Of a DNA stretch of 64,000 nucleotides, positions 9,944 to 59,968 are shown piece after piece (position 1 is the stretch's first letter; each line of letters opens with the position of its first letter). The notes below the pieces were generated by a model. That model was given only the letters and a program-made list of their open reading frames with translations, had not been told where the DNA came from and did not search any database. Where the stretch lies: positions 6,018 to 70,017 of the forward strand of contig CALYAX010000001.1 of NCBI GenBank assembly GCA_944393665.1. The letters are read 5' to 3'. Source of the stretch: an uncultured Alphaproteobacteria bacterium (lineage in GTDB: Bacteria > Pseudomonadota > Alphaproteobacteria > RF32 > CAG-239). A program made the position numbers and the translations under genes.

Positions 9944-11593
9944 TTAAAAGAGTTTCAAAACGGACTGGCTGGCCTGGGAGGCAAGCGAGAGGGAATTAAC
10001 CGCCAGCTGCTGGCGCGTCTGCAAGGCCAGCATGTTGGCACTTTCCTGGTTCATATCCGCCAGGGTTAACTGGTCCGCGCCCTCGGTGAGGACATTAATC
10101 AACGAATTGGTAAAGTTCTCCCGGGTGGTGACAATCTGGTAGTAGTTGCCGAACTCTGAGGCATAGAGCCGCAGCTGGTTAATGGCGCTGTCGATTTGGT
10201 CAAGCGACTCTTGCACCCCGGCGGCGCTGCTCCAGTCGGCGGTTTCCAGCCCCATGCCGGAAGTCGTAGCGTCGACGCCTTTGATATCCAAATCCGAGGT
10301 ACGGGATTCATTAAATACCACTTTCAGGTCCTGACTTTTGAGCAGGTTAACGCCTTTGTACCAAGAGTCATTAATCAGATTATCATACTGGGTCAGGATT
10401 TGGTTAAACTGGCTGGCTGAAGAGGCGCTCTCTTCTTTTGGAACCTGTTCCAGCGGTTTGGTCATTTCAACGACAATATCCGGAAATGCAGGAGCTGCCG
10501 TTGTCTGCAAAACAAACTCCGGCGGCAAAGTATTTTCACCAGGGGCTTCTACAGAATTTATCGCTGCACTGCTGGTGTATAACTTACCGTTAATAGCAAA
10601 ATTTGCTCCTTTTACGGCAGAAATTTTAGTTGCGGCAAATGCTTTATCGTCCTTGACATTAACCAAAGACGTTGTGTCCCGGATGTCAATCTCACTCATA
10701 ACAAAAGAATCGTGAAGGCTTGATGAATTTAATACTGAATTGTAGAGAACCAGAGAAGTATCCGTAAACCCAAAATCATTGGTTAATCCGTTTAATGTTG
10801 CGTTATGGAGCTCAAATTTTCCCGCAGTTGTCCGATCCATGTTGGAAATTCCGCGTAAATTAACAGTTCCTTTAACCGTGACTGTTCCCAATGCCACCAG
10901 AGCTCTTGCCCCGGCAACTTCAGCAGAGGCTGATGTATCAATTGTAATATTTGTATTTTGGATAACACTCTGATTTCCAAGATTAACAGCCCCGCTATAT
11001 CCTATTCTGCGGTCGGATTTGAAAGTTATGTTTAAATCGGATATGAGAGTGTTTTCTCCGGCTGACAGTCCTGAAAGAGCTGTTCCTTGAAAATCAAAAA
11101 CCAATTCTGTCTGCGCAGCGTTTTTATCGAGGTAACGGGCGCCGACCAGGGACTGCCCGTCACCCAGGACAATGTTCTGATTAGCGGACATGGTGATGTC
11201 CGAGGTCAGCACAATTAAACCCTTTTTGCCGCTGTCGATGGCCGCGAGGAGTTCTGCCTCCGTCGATACTTTCGCAACTACCGGCTGCGCCGTTTCCAGC
11301 GCGCTGTTAGCGACCGATTTGGCCTGTTCCAGAAATTTGGTTCCGGCCTCGATACTCTCATTGACGGCTTTTAAGGTTTGTATCCCCTGGCTCATCGCGT
11401 CCAGCAGAACGTTCAAATCCTCGGCGCGGTTGCTCAAAGACTGGGCAGTGTAATAAGAAGACGGATTATCAATCGCGGAATTGACTTTCAACCCGGTGGC
11501 GAGGCGGTTCTGGGTCAGATCCTGCAGCTTAGCCGTCTGCTGCAATGACAGCAGATTGTTCCGCATGGATGATGTCAAGCTGATTCCGCTCAA
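9944..11593 (-). CDS. flagellin-family protein, paralog 1 (549 aa) with a large central beta-helix-like insertion
   Basis: N-terminus (SLTSSMRNNLLSLQQT...GLKVNSAIDNP) and C-terminus (...LAVNSLSLASQASQSVLKLF) match flagellin D0/D1 helices. The start is TTG with an in-frame TAA 7 codons upstream. The central part of about 350 aa is Asn/Ser/Thr/Gly-rich and repeat-like. Confidence 0.8.
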   Translation of the reverse strand: MSGISLTSSMRNNLLSLQQTAKLQDLTQNRLATGLKVNSAIDNPSSYYTAQSLSNRAEDLNVLLDAMSQGIQTLKAVNESIEAGTKFLEQAKSVANSALETAQPVVAKVSTEAELLAAIDSGKKGLIVLTSDITMSANQNIVLGDGQSLVGARYLDKNAAQTELVFDFQGTALSGLSAGENTLISDLNITFKSDRRIGYSGAVNLGNQSVIQNTNITIDTSASAEVAGARALVALGTVTVKGTVNLRGISNMDRTTAGKFELHNATLNGLTNDFGFTDTSLVLYNSVLNSSSLHDSFVMSEIDIRDTTSLVNVKDDKAFAATKISAVKGANFAINGKLYTSSAAINSVEAPGENTLPPEFVLQTTAAPAFPDIVVEMTKPLEQVPKEESASSASQFNQILTQYDNLINDSWYKGVNLLKSQDLKVVFNESRTSDLDIKGVDATTSGMGLETADWSSAAGVQESLDQIDSAINQLRLYASEFGNYYQIVTTRENFTNSLINVLTEGADQLTLADMNQESANMLALQTRQQLAVNSLSLASQASQSVLKLF

Positions 11594-23278: not shown

Positions 23279-25138
23279 TTGAGCGGAATCAGCCTGACAT
23301 CATCCATGCGGAATAATCTGCTGTCATTGCAGCAGACGGCCAAGCTGCAGGACCTGACCCAGAACCGCCTCGCCACCGGGCTGAAAGTCAATTCCGCAAT
23401 TGATAATCCGTCTTCCTATTACACTGCCCAGTCTTTGAACAACCGTGCCGAAGATTTAAATGTTCTGCTGGACGCCATGAGCCAGGGGATACAAACCCTG
23501 AAAGCGACAATCCAAACTATTGAAGCGGCAACCGGTTATCTGGAACAAGCCAGTTCATTTACCCGCCAAACAATGGACGGACAATCAACCGTTACCGCAT
23601 CAAAGGAATGGTTTGAACGCCAGGCCGGCGTTGGAGCGGTGGTTTCCACCAAAGAAGAGCTTTTAGCCGCCCTTGATTCGGCCAGCGGAAAAATTGTTGT
23701 ATATGGCTCAATTGATATGGGTGATACGGCGATCACTCTTAATGACGGACAAAGTCTGGTCGGTGTCGGCAGTTTTGCGGCTATCAGCGACCGTGCCAAA
23801 GATTCCCAACTGGATAAATTTTCCAGCCTTAACTGGAACGTCAATATTTCCCAGCCTACTGTTGTCATGGGAAATGACACTTCCATCAGCGATCTCTCCC
23901 TGAAAATATCAACAACCATCGGCGGGTATAACACTTTTGTCGGAGCCTGGAACAAACAGGGCCTGGAATTTAAAAATATTGATCTGGTTGTTGACGGTGG
24001 TCCCTCCAGTCAAAATTTTTATGGCATTAATATTGTTAATTCAACTGCCGAATTTAAGGGTATTAACAACATAAGGGCAACGGGAGCCTCTAATAATGTA
24101 GCCGCATTCTCGAACTCAGCTTCCGTCATCAATATCGGCGGCAATACAATTCTGAATGTTGAAAACGAAAAAGGTATCGGCATTCGGGGAAACGGCAATA
24201 TATTTAATTTTTATGACAACGCTCAAATTAATGTCCGGGCTCGTTTGGGGGTTGTGCAATCAGATGTTTTGAATTTGAAAGATAGCGCTTCTCTGAATAT
24301 CGAATCGAACGATGTCGGTTTTCTGTACGGACATTTAAATATTTTATCGGCCAATGCCCAATTAAAAATATTTGCGGGAAGAGCATTTTGCAGTAATTCC
24401 AACGATGTCAGCAGTCTGGTCTTTAATGTGGTGGAAGGGGCGGTTATAAAAACCCAGGAAGGAGTCTATACAGCGCCGGCTGGCGGCGTAAGTGCCACTG
24501 TTCCGATTATGTATATTTCTGACATCAGCCAATTTGGTTTTATCCGCGACGCTTCGCAAAACTCAGGAGACGACCCGGTTTTTACAGAAATTTTCAACAA
24601 GTTTATGCAAGATGACAGTGAAAGCTTTCAACTGCCTAAGGATGCCAAAACCTGGGACAATAAAAATACGGTTGATCAGTTTAATCTAATTCTCAGCCAG
24701 TATGACCAACTTGTTAATGACGGCTGGTACAAAGGTGTTAATTTGTTGAAAAAACAGGATCTTAAAGTTGTATTTAATGAAGAGCGAACTTCAGATCTTG
24801 ATATTAAGGGCGTCAATGCCACGGTTTCCGGACTGGGCATAAACAAAACAACCATTGACACAGAATTGGCTGTCACTCTTGAAGAAATCGACAGTGCGAT
24901 TAACCAGCTGCGGCTCTATGCCTCGGAGTTTGGCAACTATTACCAGATTGTCACCACCCGGGAAAATTTTACCAACTCTCTGATTAATGTCCTCACCGAG
25001 GGCGCGGACCAGTTAACCCTGGCGGATATGAACCAGGAAAGTGCCAATATGCTGGCTTTGCAAACCCGCCAGCAGCTGGCGGTTAATTCCCTCTCGCTTG
25101 CCTCCCAGGCCAGCCAGTCCGTTTTAAAATTGTTTTAA
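23279..25138 (+). CDS. flagellin-family protein, paralog 2 (619 aa) with a large central beta-helix-like insertion
   Basis: The first ~75 aa and last ~76 aa are identical or near-identical to paralog 1 (flagellin D0/D1 helices). The central ~400 aa is divergent but shares motifs (ST[KE]EELLAA[IL]DS, DGQSLVG, SDL[NS][IL]). TTG start. Confidence 0.8.
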   Translation: MSGISLTSSMRNNLLSLQQTAKLQDLTQNRLATGLKVNSAIDNPSSYYTAQSLNNRAEDLNVLLDAMSQGIQTLKATIQTIEAATGYLEQASSFTRQTMDGQSTVTASKEWFERQAGVGAVVSTKEELLAALDSASGKIVVYGSIDMGDTAITLNDGQSLVGVGSFAAISDRAKDSQLDKFSSLNWNVNISQPTVVMGNDTSISDLSLKISTTIGGYNTFVGAWNKQGLEFKNIDLVVDGGPSSQNFYGINIVNSTAEFKGINNIRATGASNNVAAFSNSASVINIGGNTILNVENEKGIGIRGNGNIFNFYDNAQINVRARLGVVQSDVLNLKDSASLNIESNDVGFLYGHLNILSANAQLKIFAGRAFCSNSNDVSSLVFNVVEGAVIKTQEGVYTAPAGGVSATVPIMYISDISQFGFIRDASQNSGDDPVFTEIFNKFMQDDSESFQLPKDAKTWDNKNTVDQFNLILSQYDQLVNDGWYKGVNLLKKQDLKVVFNEERTSDLDIKGVNATVSGLGINKTTIDTELAVTLEEIDSAINQLRLYASEFGNYYQIVTTRENFTNSLINVLTEGADQLTLADMNQESANMLALQTRQQLAVNSLSLASQASQSVLKLF

Positions 25139-50476: not shown

Positions 50477-51304
50477 TTACAAATGGAAACGGACGGAATA
50501 ATTTACCGAAGCCAGCATGGATTCGGCTTCTTCAAAATGATCTCCGATTTCATTAACCGAATGAGCATCATCTGAAATTATTACGGGAACATCACGGCGG
50601 GCCAGTTGTTCGATAAACCACATTGACGGATAAGTTTCATTGCAGATACGCAGTCCTTTGGTATTTAATTCATATGGGGTTTTAGTCTCAGCCAGCGTTT
50701 CAATCAGTTCAAGTTTAAGTTCATCCCATTCCGGAGAAGTGCAAAAACCCTTATTTTTAATCAGGTCAATATGGGCGATAAAGTCAAAATAGCCGCTGCG
50801 GGCTGCCGCCATGATGTTTTTCCAATGATTGCGCAGCCCGTTCCGGGCAAGATCGTCTGTTATCAGATCCGGGCGCTCCAACAAGCACAGCGGACGAATA
50901 ATTGCTTTATAATCCGAACTGTAAACCAAATGGCTGGATCCGATATAATAATCAGCTTCCAGACGAGCGCGCAATTTCTCAAAAAACCTCAGCCATTCAG
51001 GGTCATTAAAATAATCTACTTCAAAACCGACCAGAACTTTTATATTGTGATTCTGCGCCGCCTGGCGGATATCTTCGATATTACGTTTATAAACATCCTC
51101 AACCTGATTATAATCGCCAAAATATATGGCATTCATGTTTTTGATTTCTAAAACATGAGGGTTGCAAATTAAATGATTAGAAATGCCGATTTCACGAAAA
51201 CCCAGCTCTTCAGCCCGTGCAATCATCTCTTCAGCCGTATTGCGGCCATCAAAAATACCCAAAGCGTTGGTGTGGCAGTGATAGGTAAAATCCTGCATTA
51301 TCAA
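50477..51304 (-). CDS. PHP-family phosphoesterase (HisK-like histidinol-phosphatase family)
   Basis: Metal-binding motifs HCHTN...DG, GFEVDY, ELNTKGL and ETYPS as in HisK-type PHP enzymes. AT-rich. Confidence 0.6.
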   Translation of the reverse strand: MIMQDFTYHCHTNALGIFDGRNTAEEMIARAEELGFREIGISNHLICNPHVLEIKNMNAIYFGDYNQVEDVYKRNIEDIRQAAQNHNIKVLVGFEVDYFNDPEWLRFFEKLRARLEADYYIGSSHLVYSSDYKAIIRPLCLLERPDLITDDLARNGLRNHWKNIMAAARSGYFDFIAHIDLIKNKGFCTSPEWDELKLELIETLAETKTPYELNTKGLRICNETYPSMWFIEQLARRDVPVIISDDAHSVNEIGDHFEEAESMLASVNYSVRFHL

Positions 51305-52560
51305 TTCCTTTCTGACAGATCAAGCATATCATAAATATCTATTCCGCAACGGCCGTCAAAATATCCTTTAATTTTCTGCAAAAGTTTCATCAGGACTTGC
51401 ACCCTTTCTTCCGAAACATGGTAGCGCCGACTCACATCAGCCATACGCTGTTCAATCGTACAAGTCTTGCCAAGACTGTTCAGCATATCGCAAAGCTGGA
51501 TCAGGCGGTCTTCATCATTGAACGTTATTGTTTGCAAATAGTTCCGGCATTTAAGAATATCGGTTCGGTTTTGAGGATAAACGCCGGTATCAAAATTTTG
51601 TTCATAAAACGAATGAGTGATACTTATTCTCGCCAAATCGGGATAATTTAATTCTTTCATAAATTCTGCCCCGACCCAGCCGTGAAAACAAGGTTCGGCA
51701 TATTCATCACGAATACGGCCGCAATCATGGAGCACTCCCAAAACATAAGCCCGTTCAGGGTCCATATCCGGGGTTGCTGCAGCAATCGTTGCCGCAATAT
51801 CCGCTACGGCCGTGCAATGTGCCCGAAATGTTGTTTCCATGTCACCGGTAAAAGGGTGTTCTGTCATGTTGCGAATACTGATAATCACCTCAAACAAAAT
51901 TTCAGCTTCCGTCGGGGTTGGCAATTCGGGCAGATTTTCACGAACATTCAGAAGCGCATAAATATCTTGTCCGATTTTTGCCTCAAAATATGCCTTGTTT
52001 TCCAGAGCATGATTATACAAATCCGTTGGCGGCGTTTTGGGGTGATAGCGGCTGACAATTCCTTTAACCCGGTTTTCAAAAGTGGTAATACGCAAGCCTT
52101 CAAACATGAAGTCAAACAATTGAACCAGGCGGTCATAATCATCAAGTTCAACCGTATCTAAATTTTCCCGGGCGGCGGCAAGCCATTCCCTGCAACAGCC
52201 ATAAGCAGAGAAATCAAAATCTTTTTTAGGAAAACTGTGGCTCAGGCAAATGCGGGCGACATCCGTATAGCCCAAGCGGAGCATTTCATTATAACCGTCC
52301 AGAACATGAAAATGTTCTCCTTTACCCTCGTCATGCCGTTTGCCATAATCGTGCAGCAACCCCAATACCCAGGCTTTTTCGGGGTCCATACCAGGGATAA
52401 GTGCCGCAACTTTGGCGCAGGCATATGCAATTCCCAGGCTGTGAAAACGGTATTCCGTTTCAAAGCGTTTCGGCCAGCCGTCATGGGCGTGGCGATAATT
52501 AATCCCTTGTTTCCAGATTTCAAGGGCAGTCCGGCGGTCCGGATAAGTTCGTTGTTTCAT
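51301..52560 (-). CDS. tandem HD-domain phosphohydrolase
   Basis: Two HD repeats (HSLGIAYACAKVAAL...LLHDYGKRHDE and HCTAVADIAATIAA...VLHDCGRIRDE). The start is set at the ATG at 52558-52560 with an AGAGGA RBS. Overlaps the PHP gene start by 4 nt. Confidence 0.6.
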   Translation of the reverse strand: MKQRTYPDRRTALEIWKQGINYRHAHDGWPKRFETEYRFHSLGIAYACAKVAALIPGMDPEKAWVLGLLHDYGKRHDEGKGEHFHVLDGYNEMLRLGYTDVARICLSHSFPKKDFDFSAYGCCREWLAAARENLDTVELDDYDRLVQLFDFMFEGLRITTFENRVKGIVSRYHPKTPPTDLYNHALENKAYFEAKIGQDIYALLNVRENLPELPTPTEAEILFEVIISIRNMTEHPFTGDMETTFRAHCTAVADIAATIAAATPDMDPERAYVLGVLHDCGRIRDEYAEPCFHGWVGAEFMKELNYPDLARISITHSFYEQNFDTGVYPQNRTDILKCRNYLQTITFNDEDRLIQLCDMLNSLGKTCTIEQRMADVSRRYHVSEERVQVLMKLLQKIKGYFDGRCGIDIYDMLDLSERN

Positions 52561-52659
52561 GTTAAATCCTCTGTCTGTCGGCCAGATTTTATAAGATAAA
52601 GATTGATGTTTATTTAACATCTGTTCTAAGAGAACCTTAAAAGAAGGAAATAAAGAAAT

Positions 52660-56583: not shown

Positions 56584-57246
56584 ATGTTTAAGTTAATCAT
56601 CTGGGATTTTGACGGCGTTATCGCGGACAGTGAAAAAATCTGGCTGAAAAACCGCTGTGATCTTTTAAATCAAAAATTCGGCCTGAACTGGGATTTTGAA
56701 ACGACCAATTTTTACCTTGGCGGCATGAGCGACAAAACCAAACAAGCTGTTTTAGAAAATTTGGGAATTGTCACGGACGACAATTTCTGGGCTGAAGCTT
56801 TGCGCCGCGATTGTGCCGATATGGCTAAAGGCCTGAAACTTACACCGGGGATTAAAGAAATATTTTCCCGCCGGGATATTAAACAATGTATTGCTACCGG
56901 CGGCATTAAAAGCAAAACCGAACAAAAACTTAAAGCAGCGGGCATTGAGGGCCTTTTTAAGCCGGAACAAATTTTTACCGCCGATATGGTCGAACACGGC
57001 AAACCGGAGCCGGATTTATTTTTACTCGCCGCCCGGAAAATGGGGGAGAAACCCGAAAACTGCGTGGTAATTGAAGACTCTTTGGCCGGGCTTACCGCGG
57101 GGCTGAGGGCCGGAATGAAAACCGTAGCCTATACCGGCTGCGAAATGAACCAGTCCCCGGATTATCTGGAAAAGATAAAAGCTTTGGGAATACGGGAGGT
57201 TTTCCGCCATATGTCCGATTTTCAAAAATGGCTCGGGTTATCGTAA
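56584..57246 (+). CDS. HAD-superfamily hydrolase, subfamily IA (beta-phosphoglucomutase/phosphatase-like)
   Basis: Motif I (IWDFDGVIADSE) and a later K...GD motif. Confidence 0.7.
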   Translation: MFKLIIWDFDGVIADSEKIWLKNRCDLLNQKFGLNWDFETTNFYLGGMSDKTKQAVLENLGIVTDDNFWAEALRRDCADMAKGLKLTPGIKEIFSRRDIKQCIATGGIKSKTEQKLKAAGIEGLFKPEQIFTADMVEHGKPEPDLFLLAARKMGEKPENCVVIEDSLAGLTAGLRAGMKTVAYTGCEMNQSPDYLEKIKALGIREVFRHMSDFQKWLGLS

Positions 57247-57966
57247 TGCCGGAAGCAAATAAGAACACCAGTTTTTAACTCCCTGCTCAATATCTGCAAA
57301 TTCACTGTCGCGGATTTCTATCAACGCATTGTCCAAATGGTTTTCCGCCCCGTGAATAACCGATGACCCGGTTTTATACTGACGGAGATCATAGGGCTGG
57401 TTTGCTTCTGTCTTTAAGCCGGGCAGCGCGGACAACCTGGCAAGCAAACTCCGGCTCAGGGGGGTCGGTTCCAAAAAAAGTATACCGGCGTTCCAGGGGC
57501 GAAATTTTCCGCCTTGCAGCTGCGGGGTGAAAGCATGGATTGAAAACAGCCGCGGCTTTTTGTTAAGCTGCCGGAGCGCGGTTAGTTTATCCTCTATAGC
57601 CTGATGATACGGGCGATAAAAGCTGGAAAGACGATATTCTTTCTCTTCGGCATTCAAATTCCGGTTACCGGGAACAGCGATGCCGTCACTCGTCTGAACA
57701 ATCAGTTCTGCCTCCTCTTCGCGGCGGTTTAAATCAATAAGCAGCCGTGACCAATTACCGAGAAAAGCTGTGCAATTTAATGCCCCTGCCAAGGCGGCCG
57801 TTAATTCGGCGCAGCCAAAATCGCGGGCAATATGGGTTTGAAATGCCGAATCCGGCAGTCCCAGATTATTGTAAGCCGCGGGAATTTTGGCCGAGGCATG
57901 CTCGCAGGTTAAAACCAGCGGAGATACTGAATCAGGGTTGATGACGGTATAACTATTTGCTGACAT
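57238..57966 (-). CDS. N-formylglutamate amidohydrolase (FGase, PF05013-like) family protein
   Basis: N-terminal LVLTCEHASAKIP motif characteristic of the family. 242 aa. Its start overlaps the stop of the upstream amidoligase-like gene by 14 nt. Confidence 0.6.
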   Translation of the reverse strand: MSANSYTVINPDSVSPLVLTCEHASAKIPAAYNNLGLPDSAFQTHIARDFGCAELTAALAGALNCTAFLGNWSRLLIDLNRREEEAELIVQTSDGIAVPGNRNLNAEEKEYRLSSFYRPYHQAIEDKLTALRQLNKKPRLFSIHAFTPQLQGGKFRPWNAGILFLEPTPLSRSLLARLSALPGLKTEANQPYDLRQYKTGSSVIHGAENHLDNALIEIRDSEFADIEQGVKNWCSYLLPALR

Positions 57967-59650
57967 GACTGCTCCTTGCCCGGGAAACCAGTACCGGGCT
58001 TACATACGGCTGTTTGCCGGTTTCATTTAAGGCCTGGGTAATCATCCAGGCATACTGCTGCTCTCCCGCAATAACCTGGCGGGAGATTTTTTGCTGCGGC
58101 CGGAATTTATCATATTCGACCTGATAATAATAAGAAAGAGGTTTTATAACTGTTTTATCATCTGCCCGGCGGTTTTGTTTCCATCCGTATTGAGAAGCCA
58201 GCGGACGGTTAAGGTGGGTACCGTCATTTTGAACCGCCGAATTAACCATATCACGGTTAAACTGTAAAAAAGCAGCTACAAATTCTTTATTAAAATGTGC
58301 ATTCATAAACCGAAACTCGACAGTTTTTTCCGGCATAATGTTTAAGGTTTTATATTTGCGCCCAAAACTGGCCATTTCTGTCAGTTCCTGCTTATTCTCA
58401 CATAAATCTGCCATCAGGCAGAGCAGAGGATAATCCCGTTTGCCGTTTGAGCTGAGATTATGGCTGATATAGGTAGCATAAAGCAAACGGTCATCGTGAC
58501 GTTCAGGCGCGGCAAAAGTACGAACGATATCCTGTTCGTGCTGCATCATCCTTTTTACTAGCCGCTTATAACCATTTAAATCGAGATCCCGACTGGATAC
58601 ATGCTGATGAAGAGAGCAATGCACATTTACATACCCTTTTTCAAAAGCATCAAACAATTCCAGGCATTGTTTTTCATCAGCACGGGAGGTCATGACCCGG
58701 GAAGCAAATTCAACCGGGGCAAGATGATTATAAGGGGTCAGGCTTTCATCGCGCATGATAACGCCGGCGGCGTCTTTGTCCTGGTAGACAGCGCTGTCAT
58801 GATTGGAAAAATATACTTTTTTCCAAGAGGTTTTTTGCTGCAGATATTTTCCGAGGTCGTCATAGCGGCCGATTTGTTCAGGAACATAAAATTCCAGTTC
58901 AAAACCGTTGGGCGTATATTTTCCGAATTTTGAACCGGTATGGGTTTCAACCTGAAAAGTTTCGATAAACTGCGGCGTGCGGGGAGCGGCCTGGTATTCT
59001 TCCGCCAGGGTTTGTCGCAGGCGGCAAACCTCTTTAACCAGCCGGCGGCGGTTTTGAAAAGTGTAGTCCCGGTGATATTTATAATCGGTTGCCACCTGGC
59101 TGCGTAAGGCTGCATCAGCCAGGAACAAAGCTTTTTCACGGCGGTTTCCGGCCGTAAGCACAGAATTAAAGTTTTTGGCAACGGTATCCAGCAGTTTGCA
59201 GGCCGTATGCAATCCATACGCATGGGCATTAGGCATATTCGGTTTAAGTACCCATTGGCAAAATTCCCGGTCATGATCAGACTTGGAGGCAAAAGAATAT
59301 ACAAACTGGCGAAATTGAAAACCAAAACTTTCCAGCTGGTCAACCAGCTGCGACAGCCTGCCGTCGCCGGTTACGGCGTATTCTTTGCATTTCAGCCGTG
59401 CATTATCGGGAGAATCAGGATTATATCCGGCCACATTTTGCCTGAATTTGGCAGCAAATCCCTGAAATGCCGTTTGCGGATCAGCAAAATTTTCACAAAA
59501 ATAGTCTGCGAGATCGGCAAAAGGCTGACACATTGCGTCAACATGCCAGTCATAATAAAACTGTTTGAAAGATTTGTGCCCGGTCATGGCAAAATAACGG
59601 TTAAAAGTATCGCGCACGGCGGCTGCAGTATTTGAATTATATTCAGACAT
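57953..59650 (-). CDS. two-domain protein: N-terminal unknown domain (~240 aa) + C-terminal glutamine-synthetase-like amidoligase (carboxylate-amine ligase) domain
   Basis: The GS-fold motifs occur in the canonical order: G-x-E-x-E-F (NGFELEFYV), H-x-H (NVHCSLHQHV) and E-x-R (TVEFRFMN). The start is set at the internal ATG (MSEYNSN...) with a GAGGA RBS. Confidence 0.5.
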   Translation of the reverse strand: MSEYNSNTAAAVRDTFNRYFAMTGHKSFKQFYYDWHVDAMCQPFADLADYFCENFADPQTAFQGFAAKFRQNVAGYNPDSPDNARLKCKEYAVTGDGRLSQLVDQLESFGFQFRQFVYSFASKSDHDREFCQWVLKPNMPNAHAYGLHTACKLLDTVAKNFNSVLTAGNRREKALFLADAALRSQVATDYKYHRDYTFQNRRRLVKEVCRLRQTLAEEYQAAPRTPQFIETFQVETHTGSKFGKYTPNGFELEFYVPEQIGRYDDLGKYLQQKTSWKKVYFSNHDSAVYQDKDAAGVIMRDESLTPYNHLAPVEFASRVMTSRADEKQCLELFDAFEKGYVNVHCSLHQHVSSRDLDLNGYKRLVKRMMQHEQDIVRTFAAPERHDDRLLYATYISHNLSSNGKRDYPLLCLMADLCENKQELTEMASFGRKYKTLNIMPEKTVEFRFMNAHFNKEFVAAFLQFNRDMVNSAVQNDGTHLNRPLASQYGWKQNRRADDKTVIKPLSYYYQVEYDKFRPQQKISRQVIAGEQQYAWMITQALNETGKQPYVSPVLVSRARSSHVSK

Positions 59651-59968
59651 TATGATCCTCATTGAATTGAAATGAAACAAGATTGGCTAAGCTTGTCAGA
59701 AGATAACCTCCAAGCGCTCCAAACTTATGACACTCAAGCGCTTAGAGGTTCATAATGCTGATGATAATGGAAATAACGGCGGCAGAAAAAGAAACCAGGC
59801 AGCGAAAAGCAGCCGGATCAGAATATCCGGAAGAAAAAACAACTGCGGTTGTCAAAAGGCCTGATTGCATAAAACTGCCTCAATAAAAAATGAACTGTAT
59901 CTATAATTATGCCGGAAAGCCGCAATGTCAAGCATAAAAAAAGCCCCTCCGGCAGAGGGGCAGATTTT

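Follow-up and report, generated by a model that had tools for sequence, protein, structure and literature searches.

Which reaction do a glutamine-synthetase-like ligase and an amidohydrolase carry out together when their genes overlap, and what controls the two? The question is raised by a 64,000-nucleotide (nt) stretch of DNA from an uncultured Alphaproteobacteria bacterium (GTDB lineage Bacteria; Pseudomonadota; Alphaproteobacteria; RF32; CAG-239; GenBank assembly GCA_944393665.1, contig CALYAX010000001.1, positions 6,018 to 70,017 of the forward strand), which we call the window and whose positions serve as coordinates throughout. On its minus strand an original prediction, made from the sequence alone, had placed an overlapping two-gene operon encoding a protein with an amidoligase-like domain (here the ligase) and an enzyme of the N-formylglutamate amidohydrolase (FGase) family. 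The ligase is a member of the Amidoligase_2 family with a conserved helical N-terminal domain, and the FGase gene is its regular partner across species. Together with a structured leader, the two genes form a cassette that appears, on sequence evidence, to be a conserved, uncharacterised and self-contained transcription unit of gut and rumen alphaproteobacteria. Whether it serves the glutamylation and deglutamylation of a small molecule, the reading we favour, seems to us about an even call.

Both open reading frames (ORFs) exist where they had been placed (57953-59680, minus strand, 575 amino acids (aa); 57238-57966, minus strand, 242 aa), but the ligase probably starts at the ATG at 59650 and not at the TTG at 59680, giving 565 aa, because its homologues have 555-590 aa and a GAGG ribosome-binding site precedes that ATG. 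The overlap of ligase stop and FGase start measures 14 nt: the ligase TAG stop codon (57955-57953) lies inside the FGase ORF, whose ATG at 57966 is preceded by AAGGAG, and through this overlap the FGase is predicted to be translationally coupled to the ligase. The two-gene operon thus holds as far as the overlap is concerned but was drawn too short, as the unit extends upstream to about 59931 and includes a 42-aa ORF and a structured leader that had gone unseen. The terminator of the upstream rho gene is the 5′ boundary of the unit, and the candidate promoter that follows it may be dedicated to the cassette. The HAD phosphatase gene said to lie convergent to the pair is present (56584-57246, plus strand) and overlaps the FGase 3′ end by 9 nt. 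In the direction of transcription the parts are as follows:

59943-59961, minus strand: strong intrinsic terminator of the upstream rho gene, GCCCCTCTGCCGGAGGGGC then TTTTTTT, directly after the rho stop codon
59903-59931, minus strand: candidate sigma-70-like promoter, TTGACA, 17-nt spacer, AATTAT, with 10 of 12 consensus positions (consensus match only)
59742-59870, minus strand: small upstream ORF, 42 aa, MQSGLLTTAVVFSSGYSDPAAFRCLVSFSAAVISIIISIMNL, with a GAGG ribosome-binding site at 59881-59878
58955-59650, minus strand: amidoligase N-terminal domain, residues 1-232 of the 565-aa protein, all-helical in the model
57953-58954, minus strand: amidoligase catalytic domain (Amidoligase_2), with PF12224 match and GhExE, HQH and ExR motifs
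57238-57966, minus strand: FGase-family (PF05013) zinc amidohydrolase, Atu2144-like subgroup, PF05013 E-value 2e-34

The assignment of the ligase to Amidoligase_2 follows from its C-terminal half, where residues 259-478 of the 575-aa ORF match PF12224 with 26.5 bits, above the gathering cutoff of 22 (E-value 7e-6), and most of 111 homologues carry a precomputed match to the same family. In the phage protein library the ligase matches the PHROG 'amidoligase' family (PHROG 2443) and receives no other identity. The three motifs of glutamine-synthetase-type carboxylate-amine ligases that the prediction had read in order, GFELEF, H-x-H and VEFR, are present and do not vary: G259-F-E-L-E-F264, H358-Q-H360 and T453-V-E-F-R457 (575-aa numbering) are invariant in alignments of 16 and of 106 sequences, as are the wider strings NGFELEF, SLHQH and TVEFR across the 106 homologues. 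NGFELEF is the GhExE signature, by which the carboxylate-amine ligases are set apart as a branch within the glutamine-synthetase fold (PMC2588565). An AlphaFold2 model calculated from the 106-sequence alignment has a predicted local distance difference test score (pLDDT) of 92.4 and a predicted template modelling score (pTM) of 0.92, and beyond residue 232 it shows an alpha/beta domain whose approximately eight strands bear the conserved motifs.

In Foldseek searches this model matched 32 predicted phage amidoligase structures at E ≤1e-3 (best E 6e-8), with template modelling scores (TM-scores) of 0.47-0.57 on targets of 250-340 aa; scores and target lengths suggest that the phage proteins align mainly with the catalytic half. 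The catalytic domain is therefore common ground with the phage proteins of Amidoligase_2 and PHROG 2443, whereas the 232-residue N-terminal domain and the FGase partner mark a separate, rare clade. Against the PDB, the full model gave no significant Foldseek match (best E 0.05, a glutamine synthetase only at E 0.87), and the family alignment, searched as a sequence profile, found nothing there at E up to 10. Membership of the glutamine-synthetase superfamily is thus suggested by the motif signature and the literature on the Pfam family, not by statistical similarity. The cassette has no match in the PADLOC defence library and is therefore not a known defence system. A paper on the Klebsiella 'amidoligase' CfmP deals with an ATP-grasp enzyme and was set aside as irrelevant.

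The approximately 240 N-terminal residues, which had been described as unrecognisable, prove to be a conserved domain in their own right. Modelled alone with AlphaFold, residues 1-232 are all-helical (pLDDT 93.1, pTM 0.88), and about 20 positions are invariant, many of them aromatic, plus D34, R114, N138, D179 and R183. The domain has neither a Pfam match nor a PDB sequence-profile match, and Foldseek against the PDB returned a best E of 1.0 with TM-scores below 0.25. We presume that it binds the acceptor or sets specificity.

The gene downstream encodes an FGase-family amidohydrolase with a CEHAS motif, as had been read from the sequence. PF05013 matches over profile positions 1-216 of 219 with 120 bits (cutoff 28.9), E22 and H23 of the motif are invariant and C21 is nearly so; the full set of invariant residues comprises E22, H23, D49, R74, D78, N80, R81, H144 and E217. 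These partners form a family of their own that co-diverges with the ligases. The nearest solved structure is Atu2144 (PDB 2ODF; E 1.6e-25 over residues 10-225), which belongs to the same Pfam family and itself has no assigned function.

A word-indexed protein search with the ligase returned 111 clusters, nearly all of 555-590 aa and 43-99% identical to it; the few named clusters come from alphaproteobacterial metagenome-assembled genomes (MAGs) and are annotated 'amidoligase family protein' or 'hypothetical'. Scanning one genome per GTDB species yielded 50 loci (numbered with the prefix L), all from gut or rumen alphaproteobacterial MAGs such as 'Proteobacteria bacterium CAG:495' and 'Acetobacter sp. 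46_36'. In 48 of these an FGase homologue lies directly downstream of the ligase on the same strand, and with longest-ORF starts the two frames overlap by 8-56 nt in all but one locus, so that the tight coupling proposed for the window holds across species in differing surroundings. The two FGase-less loci, L040 and L041, are second copies in genomes that also hold a complete pair. The flanking rho, HAD, mnmE and mnmG genes are common only to the four closest loci, and apart from these, the genes that recur nearby have housekeeping roles (apt, mnmA, an HD_3 hydrolase and a thioredoxin-like protein). Because the flanks vary in this way, HAD, rho and mnmE/G were rejected as parts of the module.

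Some individual loci depart from the common pattern. In L040 (7845-9152, plus strand), a 435-aa protein of the isoprenylcysteine carboxyl methyltransferase (ICMT) family, another carboxylate-acting enzyme type, follows the FGase-less ligase after a 150-nt gap, an arrangement seen at this single locus. In L002 and L044, the leader and an L001-type ligase start appear to lie about 170 nt upstream of the ORF start that was used, with an extra hairpin-containing segment in between; the 5′ end of the ligase gene may carry an insertion there, or its frame may be disrupted. In one protein (P0111, 638 aa, from a 5.4-kb ENA contig), a secreted GLUG-repeat region is fused to part of the ligase catalytic domain with 63% identity; the protein extends beyond the end of the contig, probably results from chimeric assembly and was disregarded.

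Beyond the gut clade the family is rare. An exhaustive HMMER profile search of 1.84 billion representative proteins gave only 79 at E ≤1e-3, with the gut clade reduced to a single one of them. Among the distant proteins, about a dozen (580-950 aa) can be aligned across both ligase domains, the helical N-terminal domain included, and the two-domain architecture is therefore older than the gut clade. Their gene neighbourhoods are listed here:

L055/L056 and L057: unknown or PrnB-like gene, aminotransferase, radical SAM, RimK ATP-grasp, ligase, Peptidase_C26
L060: bare ligase, then Peptidase_C26, among lpxC, ftsK, rpsA and mfd
L059: ligase, Peptidase_C26, AstE/AspA deacylase
L058: argB-like kinase, ligase, AstE/AspA (overlapping)
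L051, 10001-17097: LPG_synthase_C-ligase fusion, alanine racemase, AmpH-like beta-lactamase-fold protein, second ligase paralogue
L052: glutamate racemase directly upstream of the ligase
L053: ligase next to mreB

The recurrent rule is a ligase with a hydrolase immediately 3′ of it; L051, with its beta-lactamase-fold protein, is the exception in hydrolase type. Known members of the FGase, C26 and AstE/AspA families cut amides of glutamate or aspartate. For all four C26 partners the best NCBIfam match is PuuD (gamma-Glu-GABA hydrolase), far below the equivalog cutoff, and the AstE/AspA partners match aspartoacylase, succinylglutamate desuccinylase and DoeB, likewise far below the equivalog cutoffs. 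In L060, too, the module consists of just two genes, set amid housekeeping genes.

Two of these neighbourhoods are worth describing for themselves. The gene sets in L055 (3616-11628), L056 and L057 (2619-9552) look biosynthetic, and the first two also include GNAT and Lcl_C-domain proteins. The fusion in L051, a 953-aa protein from an AT-rich uncultured bacterium, combines an LPG_synthase_C (aminoacyl-tRNA transferase) domain with the two-domain ligase, and this cluster may be D-alanine-related.

The second half of the question, control, leads to the region upstream of the ligase. An ORF of 36-49 aa equivalent to the 42-aa ORF of the window is found in 40 of 46 loci, its end 75-146 nt upstream of the ligase ATG, compared with 0.1 in shuffles, and it also precedes the FGase-less paralogues in L040 and L041; a search upstream of the distant relatives found no convincing small ORF. 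Gene callers predict it, without names, in public assemblies. The peptide begins with a polar half, and its C-terminal half has many Leu, Ile and Ser residues; it ends in Leu (occasionally in Cys, Ser or Arg), with no conserved Glu, Lys or acidic C-terminal residue. Its synonymous sites are unusually well conserved, with a synonymous divergence (pS) of 0.16-0.26 compared with 0.61 in the ligase; the nonsynonymous-to-synonymous ratio (pN/pS) is 0.4 compared with 0.09 for the ligase, and in three loci the ORF stops two to three codons early with the RNA helix at its end (S1, below) kept. These three properties place the constraint on the small ORF mainly on the RNA.

The leader contains the following RNA elements:

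59707-59748, minus strand: helix S1, CCTCTAAGCGCT paired with AGCGCTTGGAGG, with the small-ORF stop codon in its 5′ arm
59688-59727, minus strand: helix S2, TAAGTTTG (59727-59720, in the S1 loop) paired with CAAGCTTA (59695-59688)
59648-59757, minus strand: long-range helix S0, CATTATGAACCTC (59757-59745) paired with GAGGATCATAATG (59660-59648)
59813-59830, minus strand: hairpin inside the small ORF (CCGGAT-ATTCTG-ATCCGG)

Aligned over 37 loci, S1 is paired in 97% of cells with six of its ten pairs changing on both sides, and S2 in 94% with seven of nine. Taken together, the two helices are paired in 95.7% of cells, and 13 of their 19 pairs vary on both sides; they score 0.49 for covariation compared with 0.23 in shuffles, none of 500 reaching 0.49, and slid controls pair only 18-54% of cells. 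S1 is seen in the centroid fold of the window leader, and across loci its 5′ arm contains or abuts the small-ORF stop codon. S2 would be a pseudoknot or an alternative hairpin relative to S1. In about nine loci of one subgroup (e.g. L032, L030 and L015), S2 extends to a long hairpin that competes with S1 and has a U-run after it; the other subgroup lacks this terminator-like extension, and in the window it is weak.

Through S0, the last codons of the small ORF pair with the Shine-Dalgarno sequence and AUG of the ligase. S0 appears in both the minimum-free-energy and the centroid fold, and the leader folds with -41.6 kcal/mol (z -4.7; none of 200 shuffles as stable). Pairing against the Shine-Dalgarno sequence is found in most loci, with different sequences per subgroup, and z lies below -2 in 21 of 44. 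Hairpins of differing sequence occupy the same relative place inside the small ORF in many other loci when inspected by eye (e.g. L011, GCTTTCAGA...TCTGAAAGC), which suggests that the structured element spans the whole leader. Rfam 15 gave no match near the gathering score to the leader in the window or in 13 loci.

A conserved short ORF and a pairing that would mask the downstream ribosome-binding site make the leader look like a new cis-regulatory RNA or upstream-ORF control element, and we infer that the small ORF serves as a regulatory leader, translation of which would free the ligase start site. By its short upstream ORF with a 3′ end paired to the downstream ribosome-binding site, its alternative helices, the terminator-like hairpins of some loci and its Ile/Leu-rich peptide, the leader can be likened to operons under leader-ORF control, such as those with erm- or cat-type translational attenuation, ilv/leu-type leader peptides or arrest peptides like TnaC and SpeFL. 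Compared with such leader-ORF operons, the cassette has a longer ORF (36-49 aa) that sits inside a larger covarying structure and a leader that matches nothing in Rfam. A type I toxin was also considered for the small ORF, prompted by weak Rfam 'sok' matches (16.9 bits; cutoff 59), and rejected; these matches were judged to be chance because the 3′ end of the ORF pairs operon-specifically with the ligase ribosome-binding site.

What, then, do the two enzymes do? Ligases of the glutamine-synthetase fold that join carboxylates to amines phosphorylate the carboxylate, usually the gamma-carboxylate of glutamate, before adding the amine (PMC2588565). Two pathways offer precedents for a pair of this kind. 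PuuA and PuuD, annotated in E. coli, belong to the gamma-glutamylation pathway of putrescine, in which an ATP-dependent ligase of this fold is likewise combined with a hydrolase that frees glutamate. In the gamma-glutamylation of ethanolamine by Streptomyces, the glutamine-synthetase-like GlnA4 stands beside SCO1615, a predicted gamma-Glu-Gly amidohydrolase from PF05013, the family of the window FGase (PMC6529630, PMC9397018). By analogy with PuuA-PuuD or GlnA4-SCO1615, we read the cassette, at roughly even confidence, as a glutamylation/deglutamylation module acting on a small molecule. The partner hydrolases, FGase, C26 and AstE/AspA, are all glutamate- or aspartate-amide hydrolase types, which fits such a module, and the idea of a ligate-and-trim system for gamma-glutamyl-type conjugates, already voiced in the original prediction, is reinforced by the replacement of FGase with PuuD-like C26 or AstE/AspA enzymes in distant relatives.

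In this scheme the ligase would phosphorylate a carboxylate, by superfamily precedent the gamma-carboxylate of glutamate, and join it to an amine acceptor chosen by the helical N-terminal domain; the co-translated hydrolase would later free glutamate from the conjugate or a downstream derivative. Since the 3′ end of the leader ORF pairs with the Shine-Dalgarno sequence and AUG of the ligase, ribosomes on that ORF would decide whether the enzymes are made. The scheme starts from the domain identities, the intact motifs, the conserved coupling, the exchange of partner hydrolases among relatives and the RNA covariation; from these we infer glutamate as acyl donor, the order of the reactions, an acceptor and a regulatory signal. 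The likeness to the two precedents has its bounds: the window ligase combines Amidoligase_2 with a new helical domain and is not a PF00120 glutamine synthetase, the Puu and GlnA4 pathways have oxidising enzymes whereas no dehydrogenase or oxidase gene accompanies the window pair, and the window genes, unlike theirs, overlap and follow a leader ORF.

Several points weigh against a gamma-glutamylation module. The main weakness is that the two enzymes, if both worked on one and the same bond, would run a futile cycle. FGase enzymes characterised so far cleave N-alpha-acyl-glutamate. Nor is any oxidase or dehydrogenase gene conserved beside the pair in the 50 loci. In hhalign, the family profile gave no significant alignment to E. 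coli YbdK, PuuA or GlnA; the stretches that the program chose to align were the GhExE and ExR strands. Some relatives adjoin alanine or glutamate racemases, a hint of D-amino-acid or cell-wall chemistry instead. For SCO1615, the gamma-glutamyl role is itself only predicted (PMC6529630, PMC9397018), and the substrate assignment as a whole is drawn from genomic context and precedent.

Could the acceptor instead be a protein or peptide? The ligase would then attach an amino acid or a peptide to it and the FGase would act as a carboxypeptidase-like eraser, the 42-aa product of the small ORF possibly being substrate or scaffold; analogues are PafA/Dop, TTL/CCP, LysW/LysX and the pearlin scaffolds. 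The small ORF is indeed conserved directly upstream, before the FGase-less paralogues as well, and all three genes appear translationally linked. In formal terms, a peptide with a C-terminal Glu is an N-acyl-glutamate, the type of substrate that FGase enzymes take; genes for RimK-type ATP-grasp enzymes and argB/LysZ-like kinases lie near distant relatives, and an ICMT-family carboxyl methyltransferase follows the L040 paralogue. Pupylation by PafA and Dop similarly unites an ATP-dependent amide-forming ligase with an amide-cleaving enzyme, PafA being a ligase of the glutamine-synthetase fold that tags proteins (PMC2588565), and the same logic of ligase and cleaver applies to RimK or TTL with carboxypeptidases. 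The evidence from the small ORF speaks against it: constraint lies mainly at the nucleotide level, the last residues are dispensable in the three loci with early stops, a conserved Glu, Lys or acidic C-terminus is missing and no comparable ORF precedes the distant ligase relatives. Unlike in pupylation, there is no Pup-like protein ending in Glu or Gln, as the sole conserved small ORF ends in Leu and looks regulatory. We regard a writer and eraser of this kind as unlikely, and its most specific form, in which the hydrophobic 42-aa peptide receives a residue such as glutamate from the ligase and loses it to the FGase, as improbable; if true, it would mean ribosomal-peptide-scaffolded ligate-and-trim chemistry in the manner of pearlin or LysW, on Amidoligase_2 and under an undescribed structured leader.

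The overlap of the genes also suggests a stoichiometric complex, and with it a two-component amidotransferase whose hydrolase supplies the nucleophile, ammonia or glutamate from an amide donor, as the GATase subunit does in MurT/GatD. The C26 partners also match class-I glutamine amidotransferase models, and one BFVD match (rank 37) is a phage protein named for a glutamine-amidotransferase domain. We nevertheless doubt this arrangement strongly, as all four C26 partners match PuuD best and not an amidotransferase subunit; FGase and AstE/AspA enzymes release amino acids, not ammonia, and to our knowledge have not been described as donor subunits.

A role in cell-wall or D-amino-acid metabolism, in which the ligase would build or re-ligate a D-Ala/D-Glu peptide during stem-peptide recycling or modification and the hydrolase would trim it, draws on the alanine racemase, AmpH-like protein and second ligase paralogue beside the LPG_synthase_C-ligase fusion of L051, on the glutamate racemase directly upstream of the ligase in L052 and on the position of L053 next to mreB. 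Each of these contexts comes from a single locus of a distant relative; murI, alr and mreB have housekeeping functions and may have come to lie there by chance; and across the 50 close loci the pair has no conserved cell-wall neighbour. There is little chance, in our view, that this is what the cassette does.

Ordinary histidine utilisation, with the FGase gene as hutG and the ligase as an incidental neighbour, is suggested by the family name and by public annotations reading 'N-formylglutamate amidohydrolase' but, as the prediction had argued, can practically be dismissed: although HutG shares PF05013, the hutG equivalog model TIGR02017 scores the window FGase at 32.4 bits against a cutoff of 278.75, a Pfam scan of 10 large window ORFs, which left out two larger ones of 814 and 917 aa, revealed no hut enzyme, the window showed no genes of the size of hutH, hutU or hutI, the flanks of the 50 loci have no hut gene in common, and the invariant partner of the FGase is the amidoligase.

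Apart from the cassette, the window contains two unusually long flagellin genes (9944-11593, minus strand, and 23279-25138, plus strand; 549 and 619 aa), in which only the terminal Flagellin_N and Flagellin_C regions are recognisable and the large central domains have no assignment. A 439-aa protein with two tandem HD/HDOD-type domains is encoded just downstream of mnmG (51301-52620, minus strand), with a homologue at the same place in L003.

In the searchable literature, no experimentally characterised member of Amidoligase_2 turned up, and the present clade offers a clean handle on this family, with a conserved two-enzyme unit and a confidently modelled N-terminal domain without structural match. 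The kind of module is itself known; what sets the cassette apart is this N-terminal domain, the rarity of the family and the undescribed leader-ORF/RNA element. The swapped partners, PuuD-like, AstE/AspA-like and FGase, point to amides of glutamate (or aspartate), the beta-lactamase-fold protein of L051 apart, and the covarying leader presumably reports a physiological signal. The cassette is spread across an abundant, uncultured group of gut and rumen alphaproteobacteria, and one variant of the leader peptide occurs on at least 1000 contigs. Identifying its substrate would give a function to an orphan family and to the Atu2144-type subgroup of FGase enzymes.

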